From Lingula anatina (lineage: Eukaryota > Animalia > Brachiopoda): DNA of 64,000 nucleotides. A program made the translations under genes and the position numbers. Location of the stretch: assembly GCA_051362555.1 (NCBI GenBank), contig CM120647.1:8742001-8806000 (forward strand). The letters run 5' to 3'. The notes beneath the pieces are model-generated. The model was not told the DNA's origin. It searched no databases and worked only from the letters and a program-made list of their open reading frames with translations. The stretch's first letter is position 1, and every line of letters begins with the position of its first letter. Below, piece after piece: positions 3,469 to 44,530 of this stretch.

Positions 3469-4115
3469 AGAAAATTATAAAAATGTGCACCCAGTGTAAA
3501 CTCCTTTATCAAATGAGCTTCTTTTTATGATGCAAAAAAGGTATTTATAAACAACTGTGGGGAAATTTCAGATCAATTTCAAGTACTTATGCGCTTAAGT
3601 GTGGAAAATCATTATGAGGAGTGTAGATATGATTTCAAAACTTTTAAAATATTATACATAAATCTGAAAGTGCAATAATTATTATATACACCATTCATTA
3701 GGTAAAAAAAAACAATCTTATTGTTATTGTGCAAATGATGTCAGGTTGAGTTATAAGTACCATTTAACATTTTACTTTTTTTAGATTTTCACCATTTCCA
3801 GAATTTCATTTCTTTGTAAAATGTTAACTTTAGATATTACCATATTTAGTCGCAAATAAACATTATTTTATTCCAATTTTCATCCACAGTCAATTTTATT
3901 CCCACACTCTGTCTCATTCATTTGTTAACAAAGCGCCTTTTTTTTTCATTAAATCATTCATAACTGTGAGATGGCAATTTTCCTTGTAATTTGCTCATGT
4001 TTTTTCCAAAGGCTAATTAAGCGATACATTAACTTTTATGTAGCATAATATATGTTTCAAGACTAGTACCAGTATATGCTGTCTATTAAATAAAATGATT
4101 TTCTATTGTTTTCAG

Positions 4116-7100: not shown

Positions 7101-7867
7101 CACAGGATTTACCAACCTATGACAATGAAGCCTTTGTTCGGTCAACTGTGCACTTACGTGGTAAAAAAGATCCACTCAATGAGCAACAAGAATTGCCCAT
7201 ATATGGTAATGTAGAAGATGAGCAGCAGGATCTGCCCATAAATGGTAATGTGGATGACGGGCAGCAGGATCTGCCTGTGATTGGTATTGAAATGTCCGAG
7301 TTAAATGATTTACCGACATATGGCAACATGGAATCCAGTGGCGAGGAGCTTCCTGTGTATGGCAACGAAGAGTTTCAGGATGGTGTTAATATCCGCAGTA
7401 CTGTAGGTGGCGCTGTTCAGAAACATGACAGACCACCAACTTATATAAACTTAGATAAGAAACAACAGGAAGAGTTTCAAAGAATTTTCGGCGTTGGAAA
7501 CGCTGAAAACACACAACCAGAAGAAGAGTCAGAGCTACAAACTTTCTCCGATAATAAAGGAGATGAGGTGCCCACAGAGGCAACAATGAGGGATCCACAT
7601 GGGGGTACAAGAAGTATGATTTCTGATCTTTCTGAGGCTTTTAAAAGATTCAAAATGAGTCAACATAACTCTAAAAGTGCCTCTAGAAAACAGTTGATCG
7701 ACCTTGAGGAAGAAGACACAAAAACAAATGAAAATTCCTCTGACAGTAGTCTTTTACCAGAGGAATCATACGAAAATTTGTCTGGGGAAGCAATGAGAAC
7801 AGGACACACTGCAGTTCAAGAGGAAGATGAAATCTATGAGAATTTTCAAGTGAGCAGACGTCACTGA
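4116..7867 (+). CDS. 3' part of a type I membrane glycoprotein: furin-like/EGF-like Cys-rich ectodomain, Thr-rich mucin segment, TM helix and acidic cytoplasmic tail with multiple YxN motifs (5' exon(s) upstream or outside the window)
   Basis: Four exons with AG/GT borders join in phase 0: 4116-5135, 5432-5563, 6799-6837 and 7067-7867 (TGA). The product has the furin-like repeat CQPCHDSCSSCSGPGEKNCTECKTGF, many NxS/T sites, the TM segment YIIIGGGCGAVVLVVLIVVVVVVCV followed by RRKRRRK, PPPPLP, and a tail of LPxYGN repeats plus YIN/YEN. Confidence 0.85.
6009..6233 (+). mobile_element. PIF/Harbinger-like (Tourist-type) MITE, family A copy 1
   Basis: Imperfect TIRs GGGTGCATTCCCAGAGATTTAGATCGATC / GATCGATCTAAAATCTATGGGAATGGGGTC, flanked by TTA on both sides (6006-6008, 6234-6236). 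Homologous copies lie at 49515 and 58410. Confidence 0.85.
6281..6448 (+). mobile_element. Short non-autonomous DNA element with CAGGGGC-type termini
   Basis: CAGGGGCAGATC...ATCCGCCCCTG flanked by CA on both sides. A diverged inverted copy of the internal sequence lies at about 60820-60970. Confidence 0.55.
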
Positions 7868-11727: not shown

Positions 11728-14700
11728 CTATGCTGCACCCGATTTGTTCTTCTTTCTCATTGGCTGCTCACTCTGGCCTGGAGATGGCTTGGATTCTTCC
11801 TTGGCTTTTTCTTTCTTCAATACCTCAATTTTTGCCCATCGACTTCGGGTTGGGGAGCTTGGCGAGTTTTCAGAATCTTTGAAACATAAAAAAAATCCTT
11901 AATTATCCTTATTTTTTTAACCCTATTATATATCATCTATGTCTATTCATACATGTAAGACTTTTTTCTTATAAGTGATCACATTCTGTGTATCTTTACT
12001 GCATGTGTAAAATCTGTATCATTTAATTTTTTTTTCATTTTATTAAGTTGTGATATTTCTTTAGACTAACTGAATTATTTTTAAAAACATTTTGTATACT
12101 TTGTGTTAAAAATTTATAGTACAGGTTTTTGCTTTGTGTGTGTGTGTGTGTGTGTGTTTGTATGTGTGTGTATGTGTGTGTGTGTATGTGTATGTGTGTG
12201 TGTGTGTGTGTGTGTGCACGTATATATCATAAAATGCTTTAAAAGGGTAAATTCTATTACAATCTCATGTTCAAAAACAAACGGCAAAGACTGTGGTTAA
12301 AAATCTTCAACTATAATACTGTGCTTTACTACTAAAAGAGATAAAAGCATTGGCTAAAAGATCAAAATATATATCTTGCTTCTCTACAAGTTTTAAGTCT
12401 ATTTTTGCATAGTAGAATTTTTTAAAAGTCCATAGGCAGAACAAGCAGTACTTTTAGCTAAGACCAATTTTATCCTGAAATGCCTCCAAACATACTTATG
12501 ATCATAATTAAGTTTTGGAAATAGAATGTAGCCATCTTTAAATTGTTGTAGACCATTTATCAATTAATTGTCAGTTAATAAATGATAATTATTATCCATT
12601 AATAAATTTTAAAATAATTGATATTATATAAATTGGAAATTAAGTAATCAAACTGAAAAAAATATTTGCATTGAATTTTTGAGAGAGACTGCATCCTTCA
12701 TTCAACAGCACATTTTAAGAGAAAAATATATCCTGCATGAAAATAGAAAAAAAATTCCCCAATAAAATAATCAACAATACAGAGAAAAAAAAAAACAAAA
12801 TAAAAAAGGCAAAAACAAACTTAAGGCAAATTATTATTTGGTCCTTTGAAAATTGAGAAAAGGTTTTAGGTGACTTTTTAATGTTGAATACACTATATAT
12901 GCGTAATTTTTTGATGAAATCATAATTCAGTGTAAGACTTGAGGTCCAAAATTTACACAAATCAGGCACTTAAAACAGTTTTTATGCCTTTAAAAATTAG
13001 CTTAAGATAATTATAATCAGGCAATCACATAACAGAACTATCAATCAACAAATCTTTATCAAGGTAAAATCACAGCAAAAACTATGTAGATGCTAATTGG
13101 AAATGATTTATTTAACTATAAAATTTATTCAATTTAGCAAACTTAAATATTCTTATTTCTGGTCAGTGAAAGAGAATAAAAACTTTAATTGTTGTATGTT
13201 AACCATAAATGTGATAGACTCAAAATGTGTTTCTCCTGAAATTCTCATCATTGGCAGCAATTCAAAAATTTCAATGGCAGAAAAAGGAGAAAAAAAGAAC
13301 ATTTAGTCTATAAAACTTAATCTAAGGCCAATTAAACAAAAGAAGCTGAAGTTGAATGTTGGACTTATTTCCACCATCTTTACCAATGAAGGATAAATTG
13401 ATAGCTGACATAAAGTAGTCATCCTTCTAAAACAAAATTGTTTCTGAGCTTTTTGCAAAACAGATCCAATTATCCTTGTTTGGGAGAAAAAATACTGATT
13501 TTTTTCCAGGTTCAATAGACCAAGTTTTGGTCTTAATGTCCAATATTTAACTTCTTTTGTGAAACCATCCCAAAAGATTCATGTAAGCATTTTAATTTAA
13601 GTCTATAGCTAAATCTATATTTGTCAAATGAATCAATTTAGGAAGAAAAAAAAATCAATTGCTACACAAATGTTTCATATTCATGAAGGAAATTCTTAAA
13701 GATAAAGCTGGAATCTGCTCCCACATTAGAACCCAAGCATGTTTATAATGATATATAAGCCTCTACCAATGCAGAAAGTAGCCAAGCAAAGCTTCCGTGC
13801 CATTACCCGATATTTCTTCATAATCCTCATAATCAGAATACAATTCTGACTCATCGTTTTTATCACCCTGGTTACGGAGTTCTAGCAACTGTAATGCTGG
13901 ACTAGCTACAGGTTCTGAGGTGAAATTGACAACCAAAAATTAGGTCAGCTTATTGGGTCAAATGCAAAACAAATCTGGGTCAAGGTCATGGGTCAGGAAA
14001 ATCAAAATAAAATTGGAGAAAATGAATGTCAATTTCATCAGGTTATAGGCCATTTCAAATGAATGGGAAAAGCATTTAAAATGAAAATAAATTCAAAATT
14101 AAAATATGTTTAAATGCATATAGCATACCAGTATTGGTTATTTGCAGTTAGGTTATAAAAGGTCAAGGCCGCTCCAATTAATACTTGCTTGGTAATTTTT
14201 ATGCCCCAAAATAATAAAAGAAAATATGCAAAATATTGAAAAATATACAACAACACAAAAAATAATAATAACTGGATTTGAAAATTAAACAGGGTTAATG
14301 GACAGGGAAGAGAGCAAGAAAAAAATGAAAGATAAATCTGTCATCAAATTTTGTATATACCAAGGTACATGCTTTACCTTTTTTTTTTTTGGGGGGGGGG
14401 GGGGGGGTGGGTAGGGGGGTAATTGTCAGAGGGGAAGGTAGCTGATGGTTAATATTACTTAACATCCACCAGGATTAGGTAATAAAATAATAAAATATAA
14501 AAATTATTATTAATATAAAATGTACTAAACTGCATGCATTGTACCTTATAAAAATCTGTTTCTATATATCATTTGGCTGCAATAAGAACAGAAGGAGGGA
14601 CAAATAACAGATGTTTCAAGAGATACTATGGTAATTCCTCAAAATTAATGTTAATAGTGTAAAATTTATCTAATGTGGTACATTATGTCAAATATCCAAG

Positions 14701-17700
14701 AAATATACCAGTGAATATTTACAAGGCCTTTTTAACACTGAGTGGTATACTTTAGAGTTACAATCTGTACTGGTACACTATGAGAGAGTGACAAGTTACG
14801 GATTCCCACACTTAACGCAGCCAATCAGTCATCTTCCGTCCAAAGAGAAAAAAGTGTCAAACTTGTGAAAATGAGTAAAACCTGTGGCATAACCACATGT
14901 GAGGTTCTTTCAAATGTACCAGTACAGCCTCTATTACTAAAGTATACCGCTTGATGTGAAAATGGCCTCAAGTTCAAATTAGCATGAAAAGGTTCCAGTA
15001 AAATCTAGCCAAATTATATGTATTACCTACATGTCAAATTTTCTACAAATAGGTTTAAATTATAACAAGGCAGCAAAGCTGTCAAATGTACAGACAAAAA
15101 GCAGACAATAACAATGCACAAAACAGGCTACTGTCAATTCTGATGCAAAAGTACATTATGCTTAACTGCAAATTCAACATCAAATTTTAATTATGCTCAA
15201 CAGGTAATACCAATGTAAGTGAAATGTGTAACAAGCGCAAGGCTTCAGGCCCATGGGAGTTTAAGTTCACACTTTGAAAATGCCAGAATGAGAAAAATGA
15301 AAATTTCACATAAAACTGCTTAAATTCAATAATAAATGATAACCCATTTGAGCTGGCTTTCTAATTTGAACTGCATGCCAATCCTACAAATCATACTTGT
15401 AAGTTGAAAATAATAATAAGTAACATAAATTTCTTTTCATAATGTTTGTAGTAGCAGTGCAAAAAGATTTTTGTCAATTTTGATGTAACATTACAAAATA
15501 AATTACAGAATAATTATCACCAATTTTTGATTATTGACTATAAATAGCATGGACATGTAGAAAATTTGATTACCATTTGGCTTCATGTCCATGGGAGCTT
15601 CGAGTCCCACAATGAATATGCCAACATGATAAAAATGAATATTTCACTAAAATGTATAACTTCCAGAAAAAGAAGCCAATTAGACTGCTTTTCCAACTCA
15701 GGCTGCATTTTAGTCCTTTGTTTCTTTTTTGAAAGTTTGACAATCATAAGTAACATGGTTTTCCCATAATGGTCATCATGGCAGCAGCACCAAAAATTGT
15801 GTTTTCTTCTATTTTAATGCAATATTACATAATGCTTAACAGCATAATGACCGTCAATTTTTAATAATAAAATATACGTATCTTGGATTTTCAGAAAATG
15901 TGACTAGCATGGGTCTTCAAGCCCGTGGAGGTTCTAATTAAGTCACACCTTGAAAATGCCAATATGTAAAAAATTAAATTTTCACAAAAAACTGATTAAC
16001 TGCCAAAAAAATTTACCAAATAGTCTGCATTGCCCACTGAAGCTTTATTTAACTCCCATGTTTCTTCCTGTAAGTTTGAGAACAGTAAGTGACATGGTTT
16101 TCCTTAAATGGTCATCATGGGAGCAGTGTCCAAAATAGGGGTGTCTTCAAATTTTGATGCACTATTACATAATGTTTAACAGGATAATTACCATCAATTT
16201 TTAATAATAAAATATTAGTATCATGGATATTCAGAAAATGTTCCTAGCAAAGGTCTTCAGGCCAAAGGAACTTCAAAGTCACACCTTGAAAATGCCAAAA
16301 TGTAGACAAGACAGCACTGTCTTGAAATGTTTTTTTTTTCCATTTTTAACAATTTTTTAACATATAACAAAATTAACAATTTACTGCCATTTATATATGA
16401 TCAACTAAGAAAATTGATGAGATGGGAAAAATATCAATAGAACAGTGTTTAATGTCCAATTTCCTCCATTCTGAGTTTCTGAACATAGTGAATGAATGTA
16501 TCTGACAAACTGCAATGATATGAGTTTATTTCCATTTTTCAAACTCTATTATACAATACATGATAACAAGTTTACCATCATTTTTACATAATCAACTAAC
16601 AATGTTGTAAAGATGCAGGAAATGTCAAACAAACACTTTTACGAATCTTATTAGTTAAATAATGAGACTGTTAACATGCCTAAGAATTGAATCTGAGGAA
16701 ATGTTTAAAAACAGCATAACTTATAAAATAATGGCCCGATTATGCTGATTTTCGAACTTGACCTGCATTTTAGTAAGATTAATTACTCCTGTGAGTTTCA
16801 TGACAACAGGTCTATCGGTTTTCCTTGAAATGTGTTAACAGTGTTGCACATATGCTGAAAAGTGAAAAAAACAGCATAACTACTAAAATAGTGGCCCGAT
16901 CATGCCGATTTTCGAATTTGATCTGCGTTTTAGTAAGATTAATTACTCCTGTGAGTTTCATGACAACAGGCCTATCAGTTTTCCTTGAAATGTGTTAACA
17001 GTGTTGCATATATGCTAAAAAGTGAAAACACAGCATAAATACTACAATAATTGCCCAAACATGCTGATTTTCGAACTTGACCTGCGTTTTATGAATATTC
17101 ATCAGCTCTGTAAATATAAAGCCAAAAAGTAAAACTGTCTTCCACTTATCGTGTTAACGATGAAAGTGCACGGCGACGGCGACGGCGACGGCGACATCGA
17201 CGGCGACAGGGACGGCGACAGAGACGGCGACGGCGACGACAGACGCAGGTGATGGCAATATGTACAGACACATCTGTGTCTGTACATAAAAATGACTACA
17301 AATTCTGTAAGGTGCATTCTGTTAAAATAAATTAGGATAAAATATAAACAATCTGCCAAGATCTTTTACCTTGTAACCAGCTGAAGTCTGTGATAGGCTT
17401 TTTCTGTTTGCGAAGCTCGATCCTGTTTTTTCGACCAGGAGGCTCCCTCTCTGCCTGCTGAAGGTCATGCCGTAAATTATTCTTAGACCACTGTCTCTGA
17501 AATTAATTAAAAAAGAAATAAAGATTCAATATTTATGCTTATTTTATAAACCATGAGATTTATATGCTAGTAATTTTGAATCAAAACTTTCAAGATATTA
17601 TGCTAAGAAAATTCATCAACCAAATTTTATGTACTAAGTAAGGAAAAAGTGACTCAAGGCACCTGTTTCACAAATTCAAGAGCTTTTGCCTGAAAACTGG

Positions 17701-18117
17701 TCTACATTTTTAGGCTTAACTTTACTTCACTTAGATCCAAATTCACAATGATTTTACATAAGGTATGATAACAAGTTTCTAGGTGTGACAATGACATTGT
17801 GTTGGGTGTGACAATGACTTTGCATTAGGTATGATAATTATATGCTTGGTGTGACAGTGACATTGCACTAGGTGTGACAATGACACCGTGTATGGTGTGA
17901 AAATGACATGGCATTTGGTATGATTATATCATACTAGGTGTGACAATGACATTGTGCTGGTTTGTCAGTGACGTTGTGCTACGTGTCTGTGACGTTGTGC
18001 TAAGTGAGAGAACGACACTGTGACAAGTCACTATACATACATTAACAACTTTCCCGCCCTCCTTGCCCTGTTGATCCTGCATAAGCTCACTTAGGGAAGA
18101 CTCAATGGAATGTAAAA
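11728..18117 (-). CDS. C-terminal tail exons (27-30) after the MH2 domain
   Basis: Exons 18117-18041, 17496-17370, 13914-13807 and 11876-11728 are each open in the phase set by the previous exon and end ...KKNKSGAA*. Confidence 0.75.
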
Positions 18118-19020
18118 CTGGAACAAGAGAGACAGGATAAAGGTACAAAAATATATTTCAAATTTTAAAAAAATCATCATTATGCATGACATTATAATAT
18201 TGCCTTAGAAGATTGGTCTGAAAAAATATGGACTTAAAGATATTTCTTTTTTATGAATTGTGACATCTTGGACACAATAATTACATATGAAATATTGCAA
18301 TAATATTTAGAATTATAAAAAGTGCTTTAGACAGGATATTTCTATAGGGTCTTTGTAGTAGGAAAAAAGGTGTGTTGATAGTGGACATCTATCATCTGAA
18401 TAAAATTATTTAAAAAGTGATGAATGTTATTTTCATGCCAATGATTTCCCCCTCCATGCCTTACAATAAACTCAACATACCATGCTCATCATCTAGAGCG
18501 TTAAGTGCTACATAATTAATAATGATGATCCAACAGGGCGTGTCCATGTCATCTAATGTGTTACGGACAAAACTTAAGGCCACAATGCAGTTTGTCCGTA
18601 ACCGCTCCAAGTTTGGGTGTCTGTTACGTAGTTCTAAAGCTATAAGGCTTTTGAATTCTCCCATGTCAAATACCTGAAATAATAACATGAAATACAAAAT
18701 TAAAGTAATATATGACATGATATTAAGCAATTTCCACTTACAGCTGCTTTCTAATGATTTTTCTCAATATCTAAGTATCTATGTTTGAAAATTCACTTTT
18801 CACTTCTAGTGAAACTCATCAAGACAAGTTCATTTACACACACATATTAGATATGATGATTACACATAATAATATAAAATTATAATAATCAATGATCTTA
18901 AAGGAATAAGTTTTTGGGTAAGCAAATGCACTTCTGAAGAAGTGCATGGTTTTTACACATATCATTATACATATTATATACATCATTATACATACACATA
19001 TCATTCTTTTTCTTTACTTA

Positions 19021-19058
<38 letters not shown>

Positions 19059-22000
19059 CTGCAATCAAGTGCCCTCTTCATGAGGTTAGAACCAATTTTT
19101 GGACATTTTACCTTAATGGTCTTCTCTGCTGGCAGTCTGCCCATGTTTCTGATGACGTCTGCCGATACGCTACAGCTGCTGGGGTCATTGTAACCCTTGA
19201 CGATGACATCATTTTTACCCAATCGGATGGCCCAGATATTTCCCTCTTTGTCACGTTTTATCAAAACACCCTGGAATATCATAGAATGAATATTTTCCCC
19301 CAATCAGATGTCGCACTAAACATCAGTATCTTTTACTTTCTTTAAAAAATATTCAGTCAAACATGTCAGTGTCAGTGTTTGAGAGCACAAAATTTATGAT
19401 TATATTTCAAATTCTTTCTTACACAAAAATTGCACACAAATATGTTAAGTTATAGTATGGCACATCACATTCATCCAGAAAGAGCTGATCAAAAACGAAA
19501 TCAAATATTTTAAAAATGTCCTTTGATTCTAGATGCTGCCTTTCTGCTTTCACGAACAATCACGTCCCATATCAGTTCTATTATTTAAAACCAACATTTT
19601 CAGAATTGTGAATGAAGACAACAATCATTCATTAAATAATACATCCAACCTGATTCTGACTTACACAGATAACATATGGTGACAGCATACCCTGAGATTC
19701 AGGGGTTACAAGAAACCTCAATTTATCAAAGGCAAGTAGCTGCGCGCCAAATTACTGGAAATGGCAGAGAAATGCTGATAAAAGAGAAATTTCAGAAACC
19801 TCAGAACTTGGGGTTTTAATGAAAATGGCAGAGAAATGCTGGTAAAAGAGAAATTCCAGAAATCTCAGAACTCAGGGTTGTAATGAAAATAGCAGAGAAA
19901 TGCTGATAACAGAGGAGTGATTCCAGAAACTTTTGAAACTCAGGGTGCCTCAAAGTGACTCAGTGAATTCCAGGAATTTTGTTCGAATTCTTAGAAATTT
20001 ATTCTACATGTGTGACCAGTATAGACTTACCTTTCCTATGTGCTCTCGAACTTTGGCAGTCTTATCATCTCGGAATGGGTTCTCAAACACAGCCAGGCCC
20101 AACCTGAATATTAAAATTTATTAATCATTTTATATGATAAAAATTAAATGATTTTACTGGAATAAGCTTTTCAGTAAGAAAATGCATCTCTGAAGCAGTG
20201 TATTGTTTTTAAACTTAATTGTGAAACTATGAGCCATTTTGAATGATTTCCATTCTGAGAATTCCCCTGTGACGAGGGTAATTATCAATGCATGGGTGAA
20301 AGTTTTCAGTATAATGTCTGATTTCAGGATTTTCAGTCTTCATTTTGGTTGTTTTTTTTTCATATGGTCTAAATGTGATGAGAAATTGCAAGCTACATTT
20401 TTAGTAAATCCATAAAAAGCATTCTTAATATAAAATATGCACATGCATCTGCACTTTGAAATTATTTATATGAATGACTGGTAAATACTAGGCCCATGAT
20501 ATCAACAATTCATTAAAGACACATGATTTATTATTCATCAGCAATGAAAAGCAAATCAGGCAAACCTTGTTAAACAAAAGAAGGATGTTTTATACACTAC
20601 ATTGTATATTCATAGCCAGTTTGCTGTACAATTATTTGAAAAGGTCTCCTTCAACACCTGCACGGTCTATAAAATAAGACCCTGGACTTACTTCTGTCCG
20701 TCGTACTCATGATCCGAGCCATCCACCGTAAACTGGGGCTCCCTGACGTAGAATTTTGCGATCCCTTGCTCTCTTTCCATGTAGACAAGCTTGCACCATA
20801 TATCTGGCTCGAGTGAGGATCGCTTCTGTAGGGAATCTTCAACTATTTGCTACATTCAAGTAAAATAAACACAATTTAACTAGATAGCAATCAAGATTTG
20901 CATGACAAGCAGGTTTTGCTTTCCTGGCTTATAACAGAATATACTTCTGAATCGTCAAAATACTTCTATTTGCTTATCACCAATTATTTATATTTTGTAT
21001 ATTGCCAGATCACGTATTCAGTTAGGCCACATCTAACTTTGCAATAGTACCAAACAAAAATCAGACTCATATCATTTAAATCAGTTACATACGTATGTAG
21101 CAAGAAAGAACAATTTTAAGGGATGCTACTATGAGATCTATGAGAGTGGCAAATTATTAATTTACGTAAATAAAATTTCGTTCTCATTATTTTTACAATG
21201 TCTTACCTGGTACAAAACATCTTTGTCAACTTTCCGTGACAATGGCCGTCTGTAATGACCAGCATCGCTGACAGCAAATTCTGAAGGTGCTTTTACTGAA
21301 GACTTCACACTGGGATACATATTTCTGAAAATGCAGGTAAAAAAAGTTCAGTACCAGGTCTTATTCAACCTACTTTAAAATACTACAGATTTTGAGGGGA
21401 TCTTCACTGAAGACTGTTGAACAGACATGCCCTGCTACATGTTTTGAAAAATTCAAAGGTCACAGAAACTACTGTATAAGATTTCATTCAGTTTATATGA
21501 AAAATAACACCAACTGTGAAGGTGACCTCGATGATTATTTAAGCTTGAATAATATGTTTTTAAAACGAAACTGCTGTATGAGTTTTCAGTCGATTTATAT
21601 AAATATGGTACTTTAATTAAGGTGCCTTAAATTGCACCTAAATAGATATGCAATATTTTAAAAAAATATGATTTTATACTTGAATATATACTTCTGAAAA
21701 AAAATGATTGGAATTTAAACTATCTTGGAATAATGTTTCTGAAATAAAACTACTGCATCAGGTTGCCCTCAACGCATCTATCATATACTCCAAATCTTGA
21801 AGGTGTTTTTAGTGAAGTCTTTAACTTGTTTGGTTGGCTGTTCGTTTTCTTATTACCCAAAATACTGACCATACCTTTTTTTTGCATAAGATTCAACACA
21901 ATCATCTATGAAAATACACAAAAAATACATCCAGTTTTTCTTTCTTACACCCACCAATTCAGTTTAAATTCAAAACAGTGCAAATTCACCATTTTTTTTT

Positions 22001-25000
22001 CATGTGTTTGTACCTATTTTAAGATGTTCCCTACGCCTATATCACCCTACGCCTATTTTCACCCACAATGCTGAACAGATAACCCCACCTCACCTAAATA
22101 CATACAGATTTTCTTATCTCATAGGAAGTCATACCATGCAAAAACCTCATTTAAAATTATAAACTTCAGCCTATCCAAGATGATTCCCATTTAAGTCTAT
22201 ATTTCTAGTATTTTCTATTTTTAAATAGAAATTAAAATTGTGTTACATGACAATCAAGCTGCTTGATTTCAGTAGACTCATACAAATTTGTCTTACAAAG
22301 TAACATCCAGCTTTCCAATGTGTAAAAAAAGTCTGTTTTTTAAAAACAATTAAATAAAACAGTAAAATTATGAGACATCAAACAAAGCATGTCTCTCTAA
22401 TGTAGGTTGTCTGTGTTACTTTTCAGAGTCCCATGCTTTTTATGACTTTCAAATAAAATGGTCACTTATAATAAGCCAAAATGAAAGGCTAAGCAACCTT
22501 TTTTAAACTTTTTTTTGTGTATTCTAGCTACCTAATATAAGATATCACTTTTTAAATCCACTTTTTTGAAATAGTACTGAAAATATATTTTCACTGTGAG
22601 TACTATACTATATAAAAGCAGAAAAGTTTACCAATATCAAATCATGCGCAGTGTTTGCTAAGTGCCCAATTTAGGTCATACATTGTACCGTTTGTCGCCA
22701 TGCAGTCTTGATGATAAAGCCAGACTACGTGACCCATTCATAATGCCCTGTACATGTTACATAAAGGCAGAAATGCATCGACCAATCTAAAAAAATGACA
22801 AATCTAGCAGCTTTAAAATAGATGCTTTATATTGTAGACTGACCTCAATATTGCAACTAAATCCATTAAGAGTGTCCAATTAAAACTAACCAACTCCAAA
22901 AATAAAATTGCAAAAAAAAAAATAAATAAATAAATAAAATAATAATAATAATAATAATAATAAAATAATAATAATAATAATAATAATCCAATATATATGT
23001 ATCCTATCATTGGCATTACCTTTACAGACAGCAACAAACTGGACCCTACAGGCTACTCTATAATACCACAGTGTGCCGGAATGTACACTATAGCTAATAA
23101 GTCCCCGGTCACTTTAATAGCACACGCTGTCTACATCAGACGCGCTAATGCGCACGTCCCCGACAGTGTTAATGATAGGGGGATTACGATGGACAGCGCA
23201 TGTTGCTCACAGCAGTAGGCACTGCCGCCGAAGTTAAACCGGTAATTAAGTCTTTAACTTGACTAAACATGTTTTGCTTTGTAACTTGCGTCCTTCAGTC
23301 TTGCTGTTGCGGAAGCGCCGGCGGGACATATCTCCACCTTGCCGATATTTATCCCGACTCTCGACTTTAAAAGTATTATTGGTTTTGATTTTATCAAAGT
23401 CTTATTATATCAGAAAACCTGCATATTTTCATACGTTAAGAGAATTATAGAAACTGTAGAAAAAGCTACTCGTACATCAGGGACACGCTCGGCTGTCACC
23501 TTGATTGGATAGTAAACGGTTGTCGTAAAATCGCTAAATGATATTAAAACCCGGTGCATAAACTTGAAAACCACCTAGGACAACCTTAGACTGCCACATT
23601 AATCTAATACAACGCAAAAATAAACTATAACAAGTGGTTAAAGCCTTCAAACCAAATGTCGTAAAGTCCCCATATACCTCCATAGAGACAATAAAATAGA
23701 AGAAGCTTGTGAAACAAGAAAAATCCAGTTCCAACATAATAATCGAAATAAAATACTGCCGGGCATCGGAGCGGCCTAAAACTTGGCACGCTTACCGCTA
23801 ATACTGCAGGCTACATCATCCCGTCGCTCGTTTGTAAATTCCGTGCATGGCATACGCACAATCAAACCGTATATCCAAATTCCACCTCTGATGTTTGAAT
23901 TGGTCCTCTCTAACCTACCATTACGAAAAAGAAGCCATGCCATTGGACAATGCGACCTCTTCGGTTACGTCATTTCCTGAATTGGATTGTAGAGAGGACC
24001 AATTCAAACATCAGAGGTGGAATTTGGATATACGGTTTGATTGTGCGTATGCCATGCACGGAATTTACAAACGAGCGACGGGATGATGTAGCCTGCAGTA
24101 TTAGCGGTAAGCGTGCCAAGTTTTAGGCCGCTCCGATGCCCGGCAGTATTTTATTTCGATTATTATGTTGGAACTGGATTTTTCTTGTTTCACAAGCTTC
24201 TTCTATTTTATTGTCTCTATGGAGGTATATGGGGACTTTACGACATTCGGTTTGAAGGCTTTAACCACTTGTTATAGTTTATTTTTGCGTTGTATTGGAT
24301 TAATGTGGCAGTCTAAGGTTGTCCTAGGTGGTTTTCAAGTTTATGCACCGGGTTTTAATATCATTTAGCGATTTTACGACAACCGTTTACTATCCAATCA
24401 AGGTGACAGCTGAGCGTGATCAGGGATAAAAAACAACACCTTGCAGCACTATTACCTATTATTCATCACCAGAAGTTACTGTTTCACTTTTTTCTCCCAA
24501 ATTACAAAGTCTGATGACAACTGAAAGCCTTTAGCCATACCTCAGGGCAGTGGGAGATAGTCTGGATTTGATTAAATGTAATAAAAGTATATTTTGAAGA
24601 ATTTTCCTAGCCTTCGGCAATTTCCGCAAAGCTTCGGCATGCGCGGCAATACAGAGCTGTCGATGTATGTAATCGTGAACAATAGAATTGGTGGAACAAC
24701 GGTTAACGTCGTTGAGTCGTCTGCAACCTACCCGACGGGAGTTCGTGTCCGTGTCTGTACTTTTGAAGATTTTGAAATTGTCATTATTATAAATATCGAT
24801 GAATATATAAAACAGTCGTGGCTAATTGTTTTTGCAACGGAAAGCACAGTAGGAAGGTGTGTTGTTATTGTTAAAGTTATTATTACTCGGGACATAAATT
24901 AGTATGCTAATCTCTTATAATGGTATAATGATTGATACGATGGGTATCAAATAGTTTTCCTTTGATATAAACAACAAAAGAGCGGCCTTCCAAATATCTT

Positions 25001-28000
25001 TGCTGAATGTTTATAACGTAGGTACTATTATGCGCAAAAATATTGATACATGACGCAAACGACATTTACTAATTTTGGTAATATCAATTTTAATTAAAAT
25101 TAAATTTAATTGAAATTAAAATTAAAATTTGTCTAAACGTGCATATTACCATTCACCTTGTTTAAAGGGTTCGCAACACTACATTCTAATACATTTTGCC
25201 AATTTTCATGTTTGCTAGTTTATTTTGATTTGAGAGAAAGCGAGAGAAGACCCTCTACTAGGGCCGCAAATTAATTATGAGTATTTTTCTTCAGTGCAAG
25301 AGACTGTGTAATGAAAAATCAATCTGTAACTCTGGTATAGGGTGGCCTTGTCTGTGTAATAATATACAAGTAGGGGCAGGGGTACAGTTTTGTAGTACAA
25401 ATAGTCATTTTATACATCTTATTGACCTCATCGTCGGGTCATTGTTTACAATAGCGCTTTGTCGCTGTGCGTACCTTTTTGCATTTGAGTTAGACTCAGT
25501 CAGTAACAGCTGGTGATTTTGTCTTTTTTGCGTTTCATTGACAATATTTTGGCCACCTAAGTAGGGAAATGTGGCTCTTTGTTTTGAAATGACATTTCCA
25601 TTGTTCCTTTGAACATGCAAAAGTCAACACACTTACGTCAGCATACTTACTTTGTAATACCAACCAGGGGAAGAAACAAAAGCCTCATAAGGTGTCGTCA
25701 TTCACACTGTAAAAGGTGTTAATTTCATGCTTCTATTGTTTGCCCATGAATCATTATGACAAATTTGTAGGGTTGCCAGATCACTGGCGCTTCATTCAAT
25801 TCTCTATATCTGCCCTGCAGCCTGGGATGAGTGATACTTGACTGACCTTTGTTTACATCTGGAGATTTTCTTTATAATTCGATCAGTGTGCATAAATTAT
25901 GATATTTTCCATCAGGAAAAATACGTGATAATGTTACAATTCTTATTTAACGGATACATAATTACAAAAATTAATTCCTGATTTAATACCCCCTATTTCA
26001 GCGCCTATTCCTGGCTGCGTTAATTATGGGGGGTTGGAAAGTAATCCGTTAGAACGCAGGAGTGATGATTGCTACCCTTACCAACGGTGCATCACCGATC
26101 AACTAATCTCAGCCACCTGAAGCAGAATCACCAACAAAAGACAAATTGGACTACATCTGCCTTCTTGTTGAGACATCTTATGTAAAAAAGGCGATAACGG
26201 TCAAAACATACGTGCTTCGTGGTTTATTAAATGTTCATCGTATTTTTTCGTTCGTTATTCTTATGAGTTAAGCAGCTTCACCTCCGTGACACCCTTTTTA
26301 TTTATTTAAACCATTGTTAGATAAACCATGGGTTTCACTCCAGATTTCACGATCGAGCAGCTGATCATGAGGAGAGTGTAGCATGCTATAGTAAACTACC
26401 CCAAATATATATATAACACCTCCAGGGTTTCACGATCGAGCAAGTGATCATGAGGAGAGAGTGTAGCAGAGAACTTCATTAATGGTCATCATAATTGGTG
26501 GTTGCCTTGGGAAAATGAGTTACATGATTACATAATACAGATACATAATAACATAAGATTAATACTAAAATTTTCCCTGATACAAAAACCCCTATTTGAG
26601 CGCTTATTCCTGACTGCGTTAATTACGGGTGATTAGAAAGTAATCTATGAGGACGCAGGAGCGATGATCGCTACTCTTACCAACGGTAAATCACCGATTT
26701 ACTTGACTCCGCTACTTCGAGCAAAATCACACACCACCAAAAGACAAATTAGACCACGTTCGTCCTCTTATTAAAACAAAGAATGTAAAAATGTGATGTC
26801 GGTCAAAGAAGAGGCCTAGACTACGTGCTTCATGGTTTATTAGATAGGCCTATTCATTGGATTTTTTTATTTCATTATTATAGCTTCACCTCGCGAGACC
26901 CTTTTTATATATTTAAAACACAGCACCCCACTGGTTTCGCGATCATGAAGAAAGGGAGTGTAGCAAAGAACCTCATTAATGGTCGTAATAATAGGTGGTT
27001 GCATTGTAGGCCTAACCTTGTTCATTTTAGTCGACAGACTAAGCTAGAAGAAAGAAAATATCATTATCGCCTCTCTTTACTTAGGAACAATAAGGATGGC
27101 TAGTGGCAGCATTTATAAGTTCTTTTATTTAGAAACTTTCCGATCCTTTGTCTGGGACTGCGTCCGAGAAACGGCGATAACGACAGAGACGTCCTCGAAC
27201 ATTTTGGACTCAGTGCAAATAAAAAAAAAATCCGTTAAGAAGTAGCCTTTAAATGTCCTGGCAAATAACTTTGCGATGGCTCAGAGAGTTCTAGAATGAA
27301 TGACAAGCAACGACATTAGGGTTAATAATAGACTAAAAACTATCAGAGTGTAGGCCTGTCTTACTTCATTTCTAAGGCCATCTTGTGATACGAGTCATGC
27401 TACACTACAAAAGAGGGGGTAGCAGTGGATGATTTAATACAGGGATACCATCGATAGTATATCAATAGAAAATCGCAATCCTCAAATGTTTTTTAATTCA
27501 TTAAATATAAACGGTCCTTTCTCGTACAATGGGTCTGGTATAGTTGTATTGGCCTATCAGTTGGAAACACGTGGTTCGTCTACAATTGCAAATGGCGGAG
27601 GTGCCGTGGTAGTTATTGTCGTAAAATTAGCTGGATACGGTGCACGTGAGAAATTTATTCATTAAATTTAGTTTTCGAGCGTCAGCTTAATCTGGTAAAA
27701 TGCGAGACGAAAAAAATGATAGATAGAGCCTTATGACCCACTGAAGAATGATGCCGAATAATACATCAACGACGTAGTTTATCGGCAGATAAACGTGTTT
27801 CCATTCTCAGCTGACTGAGGAAAGGTTTGAGAGAGCATTTAAAGAAGAGGCGGTCGAACCAATAGTGAGTAGGAAGTGTGCTGCAATCAAGACGAACAAT
27901 ACCGATCATAAGTGGACAGCTAATAACCCCTAATTAACCCCGGGTTACGCGCTGCTGTGTTGACTCCTTGCTGGGAAGGGGTAGCGGCCTCCTACTGCTG

Positions 28001-29721
28001 TGCGTAATCAAACATTGTCTTCTAACATGCGGCTACACGACGGTTGCATTGTATTAATAAAGTAATACCTATTCATAAGGAAGGGGGCGGATGGTAATCT
28101 TACGAGAATTAAATCAGTTATCGATCATACGCGTACCAATAGTCGTGTTTTTTTTTAGCTATACGGTACTTGTAGCTAACTAATACATTATCTGATTGAC
28201 TCAATGCATTGGTATATGCTGGTACATTTATACGTATGCCTTTGCAGACAGCAACAAGCACGAGGCAAGGGCACCCTGCCGTGCGTTCATATTCAGGTGA
28301 CGTTCAGGTAAGCAAACAAAGCTACTCCATCTAATGCTGGCTATCATTTTGTATCAGTCTGCAGTCTTTCATTGAAAATATGATTTTAGTATTATTTTTC
28401 ATCCTTTTTTTTTGTAAAAAATACCTGCTCCATTGTAACATGTGTAAATTTAAAAGCTCATAGTAACCAACGTTAAGGAAAATTTAGAAAAAAAATTGTT
28501 CCAAAGTCTAAGATATCAATTCAAGTTTTGAGTTTGCTTTGATGACAAATTCAGAAGATATGGTCCCTTAAGGGCATTAATAGCAATTAAGCAATTTTCC
28601 CTAGTAAAAAAAATAAAAATAAAATAAAATAAAAATACCCAATTTCAAAGCTCACAAAAGTTACTGCTAGGGATTACGGTATAAGCTTTATCTGCAAATA
28701 GTCTGTCATCAGTTAAGTCACCTATCTTGATAAGAAATAAAAGCCAGAAAACGTGACTCATGAGAAATGTATTGCATCAACATAGAAATTCGTAATTACC
28801 ACTCCAAAAGACTGCAATTTTTAAATTATCTAAACATTAAACAATTCACACATTGTAGACAACTGTAGACTGAACCGAATATTCTGCAGCAAGGACTCTA
28901 TAAATATGGACAGTTTTAAATTAACTTATCAAGTCAAAAACCAGTTATCAATACATACATTTACCTGAGTCATCGGTAGATACCTTCAAAAACAGCAACA
29001 AACTGGAGCAAATAAGCTACTGTAGTTACTTCCTAATAACCTTCTGGTGGCATACTGCAGCAAAATTCATATTATCCAATGTTATATTAAAACTCGATGC
29101 ATAGGTATACTGGTAAATTAGCCTTAATTTACAGAGAGCAACAAAGTCGAGGTAAGCGACGGTACCGTTTCTGAACATCCAGGTCTACAGAAATGCTCTC
29201 ATTACCTAATGCCAAAGTCAAGGCAACTGAATAATTAATTGCCAATAACATGCAACAGCTGATAACGCATGCCTCGTCAAGTCTACGTCGCGTACGTTTT
29301 ATTAGATCAGGAATCTTAGCATTATCAACTAATTCATCAATCTGAGGATGTGTATTTTGTGTGATTGTTTTGATAAAGGACGTGTGTGTTTTTCTTTTAA
29401 ATTTCTTGTCACAGAAGCAAACAAAAACCTGCTATGTGGTTTTACTATGATAAGTTCCCTTGCAGGGCAGAGAAAATCAAGAGAGAAAATCAGAGAAAAT
29501 TAAGGGAAAATTAAGGGAACGGCAAATAATGAGGATCGGAGATTAAATTGCTATCAATCAATTTATCAATCTGTCCTGGTGACCCTAGGGTGCAGCTGCA
29601 GGAAAAAAAGTTAGTCATTTAAATCTGCTCTGCTGATGTCTCTATACATGACTGAAGTATCTTAAGAAACTGAACAGTGCAATTTTTACCAACTTGGATT
29701 CTTAACTTAATGTTTTAATAT

Positions 29722-29772
<51 letters not shown>

Positions 29773-31994
29773 TTGACATCAAAGTGACCTCCATCAATTT
29801 TATATACCTAAAAAGATTAACAGCACCTTTCTATAATCCTAAGCTAATTCCACTGATTGCACTCTAGCAAGAATCCCCCTCAGGGTTGGACTGACCCATC
29901 TAGTAAATATATGTAAATCTGAATGGTCCCTTAGATTTCATTACCTCTTATCCACAAGCTTTCCAGCAGGGGTCCTTCTTAAGCCTCTTCTTGGCTGTGG
30001 TGCCTGTCCGAAGGTCTGGTCAAGGTCCTCCTCAGACCCAAGTCTTGACCGCCGTGACATGGGCTGGACCACATCTGGCATATTATTGTATCTGGAAGAT
30101 TTTTTTTAAAATCAATTACGTTCATTCAGTGCTTTCCTAGACCTGTAATATCTAACAGTATTACTTTTTTATTTCATTCAAAATATAATTTTTTTCATTG
30201 GGAAGAAGGAAATCTTAGTCTACATTGTATAAGTTAATGTAGCACATAAAATAAGTCTAATATTTAAATAATTTACTCTGAATAATAGCAGCCTACTTCT
30301 ATGGTAACCAATTTTGATTAAAGAAAATAAAAAAATAGTCTTTTGTGAATTGTGACTTTATTGAAACTTTGATTTGACTTAATAAAATATATTCAGTTCT
30401 CAAAATCCTACTCAGTGGAGTCAAGTTAGATATATGTTTCGCTTCATCTGTCTTCAAAACAATTTAACAAAAAAGCCCTCATTGTGAATAAAGCATGCAA
30501 ACCTAATTACACTGAATTGGCCTCTACAGTAAACAAAGGTCAGACAAACAGACTGTTCATTCAATTACTGATTCTCGCTCTACCTTTCTCTTCATCTAGT
30601 TCATTAATTTGTTAACACTATCTCTCTCCCTTTTTTCCTGTTTATTCATCCGTCTCTCCTTCCCTCCATCATCCTTACCTTGCTTCATGGGCATTCCTGT
30701 CATTAGACATGGGATGCACCGGTGCTGCACTCTGGTGGTGAGAAATATAACCCTGGGGCTCCCTCTGGGGACTAACGCTCCTTTCCACTAAATATCCATG
30801 TTCATTCACAACCAAATTAGCCTGTTGGGGCCTCTCAAAGTCTGTATTTTGGCCATTTTGATGTCTGTGATCTCTATGGAGATCTCTCTGAGGAGGTGTG
30901 GAAATATTTCGATGGTTGGAAACAGGGTGGCCATTTTGGTAATAATCGGATTCATTTCTGTGAATGTCTCTGTGGTGATAATTGTGTTGATGCCCTCTTG
31001 GGATTACATCATCTTCGTTTTCGTAGTCTGCTGGAGGAAATGCGTCGTAATTAGCGGGACTGAAATTGCGCTGATGAGAATAATATGGGTCCGCAGCAGA
31101 ATACATGTTTTTCTGTTGCAATTGTTTTTGTTGTTGCTGTTGTTGTTCCTTTAGTTTCTCCTCCAACTGTTGTTTTTCTTTCAGTTTTTGTTGTTCTTCT
31201 CTCCGTTTCTGCTCCTGTTCAGCCTCAAGTGCAGCTGCGGCCAATGCAGCAGTGAGTTTTCTCTCCTCTTCTTTTTTCTTTTCTCTGGCTTTTCTTTCCT
31301 CCTCGACCTAAAAAGGGGAACAATTCTTTGACTTCAGCGAAAAAAGGTGAGTTTTGTTTACAGGACTTGACAAAAGGGTCACCATGATGACCTTAAAGTT
31401 TGTAAGCATCCATTGCCTTTCATACCATCCACTACCTGAGAAAAATTTAGAAAAAACTTTTTTCTATATTCATGGACTCTGAGAGATACAAATATAGTGA
31501 CAAATTATTATGTTACACAATATATGAAGGTACTAATATGACACTGATGATTCCAAGATTATGCTGAGAATAGGGTACAAACCATGTAATCTATTTTTTA
31601 ATTATTTTTCTGCAATTCCCATGTCAAATATAAAATAAACAGCAGGAGAGTACTTTTACTATAGTGCATGCATGTACATAAGCTTTGCACACAATTTTTT
31701 TTCTGGAGGGAGTGAGAAAAAGGAGCCTCCAAATTGGAATATATATGCCTTCTCTGCCTCCATCCTCTAACTAGACCCACCATAACATTATTGTTGATAA
31801 GTACTTTAATATTTGAATATGAAAAGAAGAGGGGGTCTTGGAACACTTGATACATATCCACAAAGGCAAGTTTGTGGCATAGAAAAATCTACACGTTTTT
31901 GAAGATTAATTATAAATGTAATAATAGTAGTAATTATAATAATAATAACAATAATAATAACAAGAACAAACTCCTCCCTTCTCTCTCTCTCTCT

Positions 31995-34785: not shown

Positions 34786-35195
34786 TCTGCATTTCTTCAG
34801 TTGTACCATTATTTTATCTTCTCTTTTATAAAAAAAATTAACCATAAAACAGATAAATGAATGAATGAATGAATGAATGAATAAATGAAGGAATGAATGG
34901 ATCAATAAATAAATAAATAAAAGATAAAAAATTAGTACCTTTCTTTCCTGTCTTATCTTGTCGTGTTCTTGTTGAAGCTGTACAAGATGATACGTCCTCT
35001 CCGCCTGCTGGGTGAGAATAGCCACAAAGGCACTGAGGAGGGACCTCTCTTTCACGAGCTTTTCTTTCTTGGCGCGGAACTTCTTTCTGGTGAGAAACCC
35101 GCGGACATAACTCTGCACGCGAAGAACTTTGGCCTGTATGATGTCCATGTGGAGATTCAGCTGTTCTGTGTGCCAGTATTTCAAGAATACCTGGC

Positions 35196-35500: not shown

Positions 35501-38500
35501 AGATCACCTTGTGCATCCCTATCTCCCATCCATGTATGTTGGCTGCCTGCAGCACCTGATAACAATGCAAGGGTATGGGATCCACCTTGGCAGTCAGTGG
35601 GAAGGCAATCATCTTATACCTGGAGTTAATTTGTTAAAAATAAACTTGATAACTATAATGAGTGTTCGCTTCTATAGCAAATAATAATAATAGTAAAGAA
35701 ATAAAATATTATACAACATTCCTTGCAGCAAATTTCCCTTTATATCTAAAGTATTCCCTTTTTTCCAAATCCATCAACAAAATTACTAGTTATAAGATGA
35801 CCCAGATTTGATTTCAAAATTTTCTTATTTTACAAATTAAGAGAAAAGGTGTTCAAATATCCAGGAAAGTATTATATTTTGCTAATTAAAGTGTTACACA
35901 CTTTGTGTGTCTTTAATTCTGAATAAAATATTTCACACTGGTATCATAAAGACATGCACAAAAAGGTACTTGAAAATTTATACAAGTTCATTACAAAACC
36001 TCACCCTTAAGTTAACAAACTGTGATGGCAGCAGTGGGGAGTCGCACTCACCTGTCTAAGAAGGTATGAAAAGGCAATCTCGTGGGAAACCCAATGTGTC
36101 TGATCCTGGTGGTTTCAAGGACCCCAGTGTAGCGGAGTTGTTCCAGAACCATGCGAGGCTCAAAGTTATCAGCTTGTTTGTAGTTATTGGGCTTAATACA
36201 TCTGTAAGAAGAGTTTTTTTTCATTATGAGCTACAGTCATGTGCAGAGACAGTGACATTACAGACACACTTACGACAAAAACGTTTAAGTTGTCTTACAT
36301 ATCTGATTTTAGAGGACAAAAGAATTGTGTGCAAATTCGTTAGTTAAGGGACAATGCCGACTTGCATATATTTTACGTACAGTGTAGATAAGGTCCATCA
36401 TTAACAGCTTATTTGTATTTTTAAAAATGTGTTTAATGCATTATTTCTTTTTTTCAAAATTTTTATTACTATTAATTTTGCTATCAGTTTAAAGCATCTA
36501 AGATTTCTTTTCATATATCAGCTTGAAAAAGGTTATTGTCTTGATTGCAATTCTTGCATTTAAAGCAACTATAATGAGAGATTTATCTTTAAAATCTCAA
36601 TCATTCAATAATTTTTCAACATGAGATTAACAAAATATCTTGTAAGATCACAAATTAGATATCAATCCTACCTTACAAATTGTGGTTCTGCTTCCAGTAG
36701 CTTGCTCATGAGATCTGTCAATGAAGTCTAAAAAAGGAGTTTTAAGTTCTAATTTCAAGATTAAAATCAACTTTGGAATTTCAGTCAAACCTTTTGTCCT
36801 TGAAGGGACAGTTTTTAAACCATTATATTGTTTTCCTGAACTTGTGAGATTCTTTTCTTAATAATCCACTTCCATCTTATGATATCTATACTTCACAAAT
36901 TTTTCTAAATATTTCACCAACCCGTACCTGAAATTTTGCTCCAGCAGTCTTCTGATTAAGGGACTCTTGCTCAACAGTTCTTCTTGCTTGGTATCTGGAA
37001 AAAAGAATCAAGATATTCAAAGTTGTCTTCATTCAAACATGATGCAGAACCATAAATTTTGGAAGCTACAAATTACTGCACCTCACTGCATAGTTCATTT
37101 TTAGTTACTGAAATCTGGTAAATTTTCTACATTTAATTTTCATCACTTTAAATTTAAACAATTTTGAATGTACTGACTATAAATTAAATTACAACTGCAA
37201 ATCTTAGTCAGTCCATCAAATGCCTAAAGTCATTTAAAAAAATTAAACATTAACTTCCATCACACCCTTGGTACCAATTCACTGTTCATTGTTTTATGTT
37301 ACTTAGTAATGTTTTTATTTAACACATAAGATATATAATAGAGAAAAAAGAAAGAAAAATAAAACTGCAACTACACCAAAAACAAGACTGTAATCTTACC
37401 GCTCCTTCAACGCCTTGCCAGCTTGTCTTGAAAGACTCTTGGTACGTCTGCTGACATCTGGTGCCCGACAACGTAAAATGGACTTTCTACTTCGGATTGG
37501 GGTTTTAGAGCTTTTAGATAGAGTTAAAAACATCAAAGTGAGAATGAGATGAAGAAAATACAACCCAAGATGAAATGTCACTCTCTATTTCTTGACATTT
37601 CTTCATTAAGAATCAAAAACAATTATAATTTTTCCAAAAAGTGAAAGAGGCAGCTCAAAAAAATTCAGCTGATAAAAGCGTTAGAGAACTGCAGATATAT
37701 AACTAATTTGCAAACCAAGCACAGAAAAAAAACTCATGATGTGGAAAATTTCTCTTATTCATGAATATTCAAAATAAATTGATGGGTCAGTGCCTATGCA
37801 TTGGTGCTAATGTGCATGTACAGTATACATGTGTGTGTGCTTGCATGCCTGTGGATACACGTGTATAAATGTGTGCACATGTGTGTGTGTGTTTGCGCAC
37901 TCACATAAGTGTATGCATGTGCGCACAACATTCTTGTGCAAGTGTGCATACATGCATTTATATGTACACATGTGCATATACGAGTGTACATGCATGCCTG
38001 CATATGTGCGTGCGTGCATGTCTGCGTACTCACTTTATCAGCAGTGTTCCTGTATCAGCCACTTGGGCAGTAAAAAGATCACAGATAATCTGGGAGTCAC
38101 TGTTCTTCATGCATTCTAGGATATTGGGACTAAGAGTATCACGATTCTTCTCCAGGAAGCCCTCCGCATTATAGATGACCTGAAACATAAAAATCATAGT
38201 TATTTACTTGTAGAATTTCTTATCAAAAATTTTATAACCATCTGAAATTTTAGTTTTAAAATATCTTCTTTTTGTAAAAGATTACTGAACATTTCATAAT
38301 TTAGATATTAGACTTAAAATTTATATAAATCAATTAGGTGATCAATTAATAATTCAATAAATATAAAAATTGTTATCTTTTAATTATTTACTGACTACTT
38401 AAATTGTTATTGTTGTTGACATTATCACCATCATCATTATCATTATTATTATTATATTATATTTTTTATTATCTAAAAACTCACCTGGCCAGCATAATGT

Positions 38501-41500: not shown

Positions 41501-41811
41501 TAAAACATATTTCCATAGATATTTTGAAAGTCAGTCCACAAGGTATTTTAATAAGGGTCAAGGTCAATCCACAAGGTCAAAAATAAAGGTCAATGTCAGG
41601 TCATAGAAAAGAAGAAGACAGACATTTTCATCGATTATTGAAATATTTCTCAACTAAAAAGGACCAAATGAATGAAAAAATAACTTATACATAAGCAAAT
41701 TAAAAGCACAAGCTTGTAAAGCATCTAAAACACAAAATTAATTTGATTATAATTACACATGAAAATAAGAAGGCAAAATGACAAACAGGTCATAATCAAG
41801 ACCAAACAAAT

Positions 41812-41888
<77 letters not shown>

Positions 41889-44499: not shown

Positions 44500-44530
<31 letters not shown>

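Follow-up and report, generated by a model that had tools for sequence, protein, structure and literature searches.

An Expansion-type N-alpha-MH2 domain that very probably forms part of the tail of a myosin in the brachiopod Lingula anatina

Within a 64,000-nucleotide (nt) stretch of the Lingula anatina genome (assembly GCA_051362555.1, contig CM120647.1, positions 8,742,001 to 8,806,000; hereafter the window), positions 18481-21324 encode an MH2 domain that an original prediction, made from the sequence alone, assigned to the Expansion/Rebuf (Exp/Reb) family and implicitly treated as a gene of its own. The locus therefore raises the questions of what kind of MH2 domain this is, to what gene it belongs, and how that gene is related to the Expansion proteins. 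We find that the domain belongs with Expansion/Rebuf (N-alpha-MH2), and not with the R-, Co- or I-Smads, and that its exons very probably form the tail of a single spliced myosin gene, in which a motor, an IQ motif, a charged helix and a linker precede the Expansion-type N-alpha-MH2. The gene is already annotated and the architecture has already been published for other taxa.

The MH2 region comprises five minus-strand exons with AG/GT borders that give one open frame after splicing, and the motifs quoted in the original prediction, including [15 protein letters not shown] in the L3 region, are all present in that frame. Since the first of these exons opens in phase 2, behind an acceptor, and the last closes in phase 1 with a donor, the gene must continue at both ends. 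In the full model they are exons 22-26 of 30, with 21 coding exons upstream (to 47587), which encode the myosin motor, IQ motif, stalk and linker, and four downstream (to 11728), and the implied stand-alone gene has to be given up. The model runs on the minus strand from 47587 to 11728 and is open over 1445 amino acids (aa), with AG/GT at every joint and phases that agree; exons 1-28 (47587 to 17370) contribute 1360 open codons, and two further exons finish the gene at 11728. The protein differs at 10 of 1445 residues from XP_013418100.1, a Lingula anatina record named myosin-IIIb isoform X2 (1445 aa, one of four RefSeq isoforms, all of which begin at the same Met), which bears out the lophotrochozoan host that had been proposed. 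The last MH2 exon matches this record at 100% (1 match, 79 candidates).

A Pfam scan of the whole 1445-aa protein detected a myosin head (PF00063, aa 9-720, E 3e-207), an IQ motif (PF00612, aa 738-755) and one MH2 domain (aa 1115-1281, E 1.9e-30), and no kinase or MH1. The IQ match scored 17 bits in the whole protein, under the 20.3 cut-off, and passed when exon 19 was scanned by itself (E 1.1e-4); the MH2 profile matched three of its five exons singly, in profile order. The protein ends in KNKSGAA, 160 residues beyond the MH2 domain. The absence of an MH1 and of a C-terminal SSxS, and the single MH2 copy, were all as predicted. The P-loop (GESGAGKTE), switch I ([10 protein letters not shown]), switch II (DIAGFE), relay and SH1 motifs are intact and canonical, and suggest that the product likely works as an actin motor. 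When the whole protein was searched against the Protein Data Bank (PDB), the matches were confined to myosins VII, X and XV, from which the class is not assignable. The parts of the gene are as follows, all on the minus strand.

35508..47587, minus strand: myosin motor from the start ATG at 47587, coding exons 1-18 (aa 1-716), without an N-terminal kinase (PF00063)
43254..43277, minus strand: optional 24-nt micro-exon (8 aa) within the motor, AG/GT flanks, in 3 of 4 RefSeq isoforms
34939..35190, minus strand: exon 19, motor end, single IQ motif and stalk start (PF00612)
30679..31307, minus strand: exon 20, helical stalk rich in E/K/R/Q (60 of 86 residues, aa 781-866), then a low-complexity linker rich in H/Q/P (model, RNA depth)
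29945..30091, minus strand: exon 21, linker (model, RNA)
21325..29944, minus strand: 8,620-nt intron between the myosin part and the MH2 exons (RNA joint)
21207..21324, minus strand: exon 22, last part of the linker and first part of the N-alpha helix, in-frame ATG at aa 1061 (model)
20692..20849, minus strand: exon 23, N-alpha helix followed by the first strands of the MH2 (Pfam, RNA, predicted fold)
20031..20103, minus strand: exon 24, MH2 (model, RNA)
19112..19270, minus strand: exon 25, MH2 (Pfam, RNA)
18481..18673, minus strand: exon 26, bundle of MH2 helices with a short L3 loop of Expansion type (Pfam, PDB search)
18041..18117, minus strand: exon 27, post-MH2 helix (model)
17370..17496, minus strand: exon 28, tail blocks WSK, RK..R.EL and [YF]SW, conserved in bilaterian MH2-myosin tails (alignment)
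13807..13914, minus strand: exon 29, acidic tail, missing from RefSeq isoforms X3 and X4 (RefSeq)
11728..11876, minus strand: exon 30, last coding exon, conserved WAK block, stop TAG (alignment)

The last blocks belong to a wider pattern, in that bilaterian MH2-myosin tails have C-terminal blocks of their own (10 aligned).

To follow splicing in RNA, five raw-read Lingula runs, which come from other individuals and carry many fixed differences, were placed on the window. The joint 21324-29945 (CT..AC), over the 8,620-nt intron, was crossed by 6, 6, 6 and 8 reads in runs X1, X7, X8 and X9, with five starts in each, and joints 30088-30676 and 20849-21207 were present in the same four runs. Among the joints listed for another selection of four of the five runs, 19269-20030 and 20101-20690 were seen in three of four runs. 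In the stranded run X1 the RNA came from the minus strand. One transcript runs from the stalk to the MH2 domain, and the gene is expressed. A point that counts against the complete model is that joints 31307/34939 and 35190/35508 (exons 19/20 and 18/19) were absent among the joints listed, at low depth in that region; the link from motor to stalk rests on phase, on the four RefSeq isoforms and on homologues.

The assignment of the domain was made by sequence and by structure. In a PDB sequence search, Expansion (4r9p) was matched at E 3.2e-45 and 157.5 bits, compared with E 8.7e-13 and 51.5 bits for the best Smad, Smad4; the alignment to 4r9p takes in the N-alpha helix (from chain position 35), and the L3 loop aligns ungapped to Expansion and with a 6-residue gap to Smad4. 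An AlphaFold model, obtained with a 64-sequence alignment, had a predicted local distance difference test score (pLDDT) of 95.7, with a helix at residues 10-25 above 95. In Foldseek the model was nearest to 4r9p, with a template modelling score (TM) of 0.88, a root-mean-square deviation (rmsd) of 1.7 and 37% identity over 205 columns, and the Smads scored 0.65-0.70; in VIA, model residues 5-212 were superimposed on 4r9p 27-236 (Z 31.2, rmsd 2.0, 205 aligned), and the best Smad reached Z 21.2, rmsd 3.4 and 176 aligned. It should be set against this agreement that the fold match is not fully independent, because the alignment is rich in Expansion sequences and 4r9p predates AlphaFold training. 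The model predicts for Lingula an Expansion fold with an N-alpha helix and a short L3 lacking the phosphoserine-binding site. In Expansion this helix covers the trimer face of Smads, and L3 has 11 residues, compared with 17 in Smads, and no phosphoserine site (PMC4388265). With the trimer face hidden by the helix and a short L3 devoid of that site, TGF-beta signalling is unlikely, as the original prediction had argued for receptor coupling. A divergent Smad acting in TGF-beta signalling would account for the MH2 fold and for Smad matches at E ~1e-12, but Expansion ranks above every Smad by sequence and structure. We rejected this reading, and consider it wrong almost to a certainty, given a protein without the MH1 of R- and Co-Smads or the SSxS of R-Smads, with an L3 shorter by six residues, an N-alpha helix and a fusion to myosin.

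A different question is whether the MH2 exons also act without the motor. In its strong form, this would mean that an Expansion/Rebuf orthologue, a gene of its own with the MH2 close to its N-terminus, sits immediately downstream of a myosin gene to which it is unrelated. The joint from myosin to MH2, which occurs in all four runs, excludes a gene that is purely separate; the Lingula protein also has neither CM2, a motif of Expansion, nor the Expansion-type N-terminal motif, and we regard this form as very improbable. For CM2 we used a search pattern taken to represent the motif. It fits between the flanks of the deletion primers in PMC9894549, and occurred in 24 of 170 stored proteins, none of these a myosin. 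The PYY at aa 874 of the Lingula protein looks unrelated to CM2 and is upstream of the MH2 domain. In the weaker form, the myosin gene would additionally yield a headless protein from a promoter within the 8.6-kilobase intron, for which two candidate first exons can be proposed.

28965..29003, minus strand: candidate alternative first exon, spliced to 21324; donor at 28965, upper coordinate guessed (RNA reads)
23020..23060, minus strand: another candidate for an alternative first exon, with its donor at 23020 and the 5' end unmapped (RNA reads)

The 28965 donor was joined to exon 22 by 0, 2, 3 and 6 reads in X1, X7, X8 and X9 (plus 0, 3, 4 and 0 for a variant), and the 23020 donor by 0, 2, 4 and 2; no joint led from 29945 into the intron among the joints listed, and depth was ~32-39 reads on exon 22 compared with 12-20 on exon 21 (X7-X9). 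Both candidate exons are closed in the MH2 frame, and translation from the first in-frame ATG (aa 1061) would give 385 aa, with 32 residues ahead of the N-alpha helix motif, compared with 33 in Drosophila Expansion. However, both alternative joints are missing from X1, and X7-X9 are one study. The region of the 23020 donor resembles a copy at 28981-29024 (44 nt at 80%), so that reads at the two donors may cross-map. The 28965 piece carries an out-of-frame ATG, the depth step could be accounted for by 3' bias or by sequence differences between individuals, and none of the four RefSeq isoforms is headless. Because of the shared 44 nt, the out-of-frame ATG and 5' ends that are unmapped, we treat a headless isoform as a lead, and a rather unlikely one. 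A bacterial promoter scan near the 23020 donor gave chance level, and is not relevant for an animal. The intron also contains short duplications and a 449-nt inverted repeat at 23484-24418 (97% complementary, 37-nt spacer) that resembles a young fold-back element.

The distribution of the domain was examined with HMMER over 1.84 billion representatives, which gave 683 matches at E <= 0.001, of which the best 150 were studied. No Smad-type L3 was present among these 150, no MH1 was found in any of 31 relatives scanned, and a myosin-head match was present in 14 of the 150, including six of the seven at the top. Word-indexed homologue searches recovered only the protein itself and one 85-aa fragment, and the ESM Atlas only generic MH2 clusters. 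Species names were obtained for six of ten myosin-bearing clusters looked up (Sinanodonta, Patella, Aplysia, Acanthaster, Rhopilema, Hydractinia) and five of ten headless clusters (Solemya, Drosophila rhopaloa, Agrilus, C. elegans, Halicephalobus). The headless Solemya record groups with the myosin tails and is probably a fragment. All four named records of the stand-alone clade are ecdysozoan, and none of the named myosin-type records is. The N-alpha-MH2 kind thus also tails myosins of one echinoderm and two cnidarians, which makes the domain type older than the origin early in protostomes that had been suggested. One cnidarian-type tail matched Expansion before any Smad, weakly (1.5e-9 vs 1.4e-4).

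Several of these relatives merit mention in their own right. Rhopilema and Hydractinia (P0089 and the P0149 cluster) are cnidarian myosins with a short-L3 MH2 tail, and the available text of two myosin surveys (PMC5583752, PMC3942036) names no cnidarians for MH2-tailed myosins. Patella, Aplysia and other mollusc-type MH2 myosins (P0008, P0009, P0015, P0077, P0104) have a degenerate switch I, switch II and relay and heads only 24-33% identical to that of Lingula, which suggests motor decay while the MH2 domain was kept. The P0016 cluster, from JGI/IMG and in the Expansion clade, has two tandem MH2 domains, the sole case among the 31 scanned. The original prediction had given Expansion itself two copies; this was not borne out, as Pfam detects just one MH2 stretch in a Drosophila Expansion record (P0023), and only one domain is described in PMC4305360.

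How Expansion and the MH2 myosins are related was addressed with an IQ-TREE analysis of 46 domains chosen from 118 kept, after 38 partial or isoform rows had been dropped. Groups were assigned after the first tree was inspected, and the root was placed on three cnidarian-type and two further myosin tails. The 24 stand-alone rows formed a clade (97/86) that joined 17 bilaterian myosin-type rows at 98/97, and the bilaterian myosin tails, including Acanthaster, formed one group (75/89). Lingula fell outside the stand-alone Expansion clade in the best tree, and its placement as sister to Expansion was not rejected (P value of the approximately unbiased test, p-AU, 0.26). Of the Exp/Reb traits, the Lingula protein has the domain subtype and lacks CM2 and, in its full-length form, the stand-alone design. 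A possible trace of shared introns was seen in mis-called protein records of the Expansion class, in which 11 of 26 breakpoints lie at most three residues from three Lingula intron sites, compared with ~3 expected (nominal P 5e-5, with records that lack independence and a margin picked afterwards). At a fourth Lingula intron site, 9 of 35 Expansion-class records turn non-homologous, ending in Q, and Expansion-class records also break at one site without a Lingula counterpart. The agreement in breakpoints argues for common descent, and not for exclusivity, because Smad introns were not in the comparison.

The domain itself gives good support for a tie between Expansion and these myosins, and an origin by motor loss, or a shared function in chitin, is no more than plausible. 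On balance, we think it probable from the sequence comparisons that Expansion/Rebuf are ecdysozoan descendants of an MH2-myosin tail that lost its motor. Several observations weigh against this origin. Expansion may be sister to the myosin tails rather than nested among them, because the bilaterian tails form a group of their own; the tree was rooted on myosin tails without any Smad; and the intron signal comes from protein fragments rather than DNA, from non-independent records and with Smad introns left out. Moreover, species names are known for five of the ten stand-alone records looked up, with about 120 others lying outside that sample, so that stand-alone Expansion may also exist outside ecdysozoans, and the conclusions of PMC4388265 state that Expansion is conserved in Mollusca and Annelida. 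An alternative that we take seriously while judging it less than probable is that Expansion and the MH2 myosins are old paralogues that split before or at the base of Bilateria, with a stand-alone gene kept beside the myosin, in which case Expansion would not be the ecdysozoan orthologue of the Lingula gene. In its favour, the bilaterian myosin tails, with Acanthaster, form a group in 78% of bootstrap trees, sister to the Expansion clade in the best tree, and many Expansion-clade records could be non-ecdysozoan. On the other hand, the topology expected if Expansion is the ecdysozoan orthologue, with Acanthaster held with the outgroup, was just 2.7 log-likelihood units worse and was not rejected (p-AU 0.40), the named records are complementary by taxon, and PMC4305360 found orthologues in arthropods and nematodes. 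In the titles and abstract openings searched, which do not cover subscription journals or supplementary figures, no link between Expansion/Rebuf and MH2 myosins was found, and the word myosin does not occur in the text examined of PMC4388265, PMC9894549 and PMC4305360. As far as their text was available, the Expansion papers present Exp/Reb as having arisen in protostomes or ecdysozoans and as the sole non-Smad MH2 proteins, and the myosin surveys list MH2 myosins without a tie to Expansion.

What the Lingula protein might do can be proposed from its parts. It would be an actin motor with one IQ motif, extended by a charged helix and a flexible linker that carries a monomeric domain for binding other proteins. 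Cargo, and not TGF-beta receptors, is what the MH2 domain is predicted to bind. The motor may bring the N-alpha-MH2 and its partners to apical actin, a job that CM2 would help with in the motor-less Expansion. In the fly, the N-alpha-MH2 is required for chitin translocation and is not self-localising, and CM2 aids apical accumulation (PMC9894549); because the N-alpha-MH2 does not localise alone, a motor ahead of it would supply localisation. The cargo that we favour, at less than even odds, would be apical matrix or chitin export machinery. Class-80 and orphan MH2 myosins group beside the class-36 myosin-chitin synthases (PMC5583752), and 31 chitin synthase genes are present in Lingula, whose chaetae are chitinous (PMC4595640). 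One observation speaks against such a cargo: no direct binding of Exp/Reb to chitin synthase was found in PMC9894549. We lean slightly towards a cargo that has nothing to do with chitin, such as receptor proteins or those of endocytosis or microvilli, with the chitin role an ecdysozoan co-option. The architecture is present in an echinoderm and cnidarians, and also in a choanoflagellate and a sponge (PMC3942036), CM2 is absent from the MH2 myosins, other roles have been ascribed to Reb, in recycling of the luminal matrix, and to Exp, in receptor tyrosine kinase signalling (PMC6176944, PMC4388265), and PMC4305360 describes Exp/Reb as newly invented for ectodermal chitin. Yet the part of Expansion needed for chitin translocation is precisely the N-alpha-MH2, which is 37% identical in Lingula, and the chitin synthases and chaetae of Lingula also count against a cargo of another kind.

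A more far-reaching version holds that Expansion/Rebuf are motor-less tails of an ancestral MH2 myosin that carried chitin-export machinery along apical actin, and that Lingula makes both full and headless forms, the latter from a promoter inside the long intron. We consider it doubtful. If true, a full motor and a headless Expansion-like protein in Lingula would show a route to the fly factor and, together with the neighbouring class-36 myosin-chitin synthases, a single clade of myosins would twice have become linked to chitin secretion. More generally, the link between Expansion and MH2 myosins would give Exp/Reb an origin, predict for them a role as cargo adaptors at apical actin, and bear on how they make chitin synthase export its polymer. 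The Lingula gene becomes a candidate chitin regulator in shells and chaetae, and the result is also relevant to the idea, already proposed, that Smads took their MH2 from the tail of a myosin.

Other features of the window were noted alongside the gene. A convergent neighbour on the plus strand (4044-5297 and 7028-7867) comprises exons of a membrane protein with a Cys-rich furin-like repeat, a Thr-rich stalk, a transmembrane helix and, on the cytoplasmic side, repeats of the tyrosine motif LP(T/I/V)YGN; its Pfam matches are all under cut-off. Broken open reading frames at 2011-2973 on the minus strand, with a weak chromo-domain match, look like the end of the integrase of a retrotransposon, the putative type of the element. 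In the intron after exon 28, a repeat at 15060-17295 that includes a 160-nt tandem unit has read depth in the hundreds in all four runs, mostly from other copies. A G-rich 30-nt tandem array (51063-51340, 9.4 copies) lies upstream of the first coding exon.

Among known systems, the MH2 domains of Smad2/3/4 share the fold (Z ~20-21, rmsd 2.5-3.4, 170-178 aligned) and differ from the Lingula protein, which lacks MH1 and SSxS and has a short L3 and an extra helix on the trimer face. Myosin IIIb, the RefSeq name of XP_013418100, reflects a myosin III-like motor by automatic naming. An N-terminal kinase domain defines class III myosins (PMC3942036), and the name is misleading because the Lingula head starts at aa 9 with no kinase ahead of it; with no kinase in the Pfam scan, a myosin III identity was rejected. 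The myosin III-like-MH2 proteins of Salpingoeca (choanoflagellate) and Oscarella (sponge) are alike in joining a myosin to a C-terminal MH2, and this architecture has been proposed as the state giving rise to Smads (PMC3942036); their sequences were not identified among the relatives recovered. Closer in design are the class-80 and lophotrochozoan orphan MH2 myosins, with a motor, a C-terminal MH2 and no kinase (PMC5583752). Class 80 was defined on Ambulacraria, with the lophotrochozoan forms left unclassified, and the available text of that survey mentions neither brachiopods nor Expansion. Among 12 MH2 myosins whose motors were compared by identity, that of Acanthaster is nearest to the Lingula motor, at 55%, and the named cnidarian records widen the range beyond the class-80 and orphan forms. 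Drosophila Expansion/Rebuf (4r9p) share with the Lingula domain the N-alpha helix, the short L3, the identity and fold given above and apparently the intron sites. They differ in having no motor, an N-terminal domain and CM2, whereas in Lingula the domain follows 1,090 residues of myosin and is itself followed by other conserved blocks.

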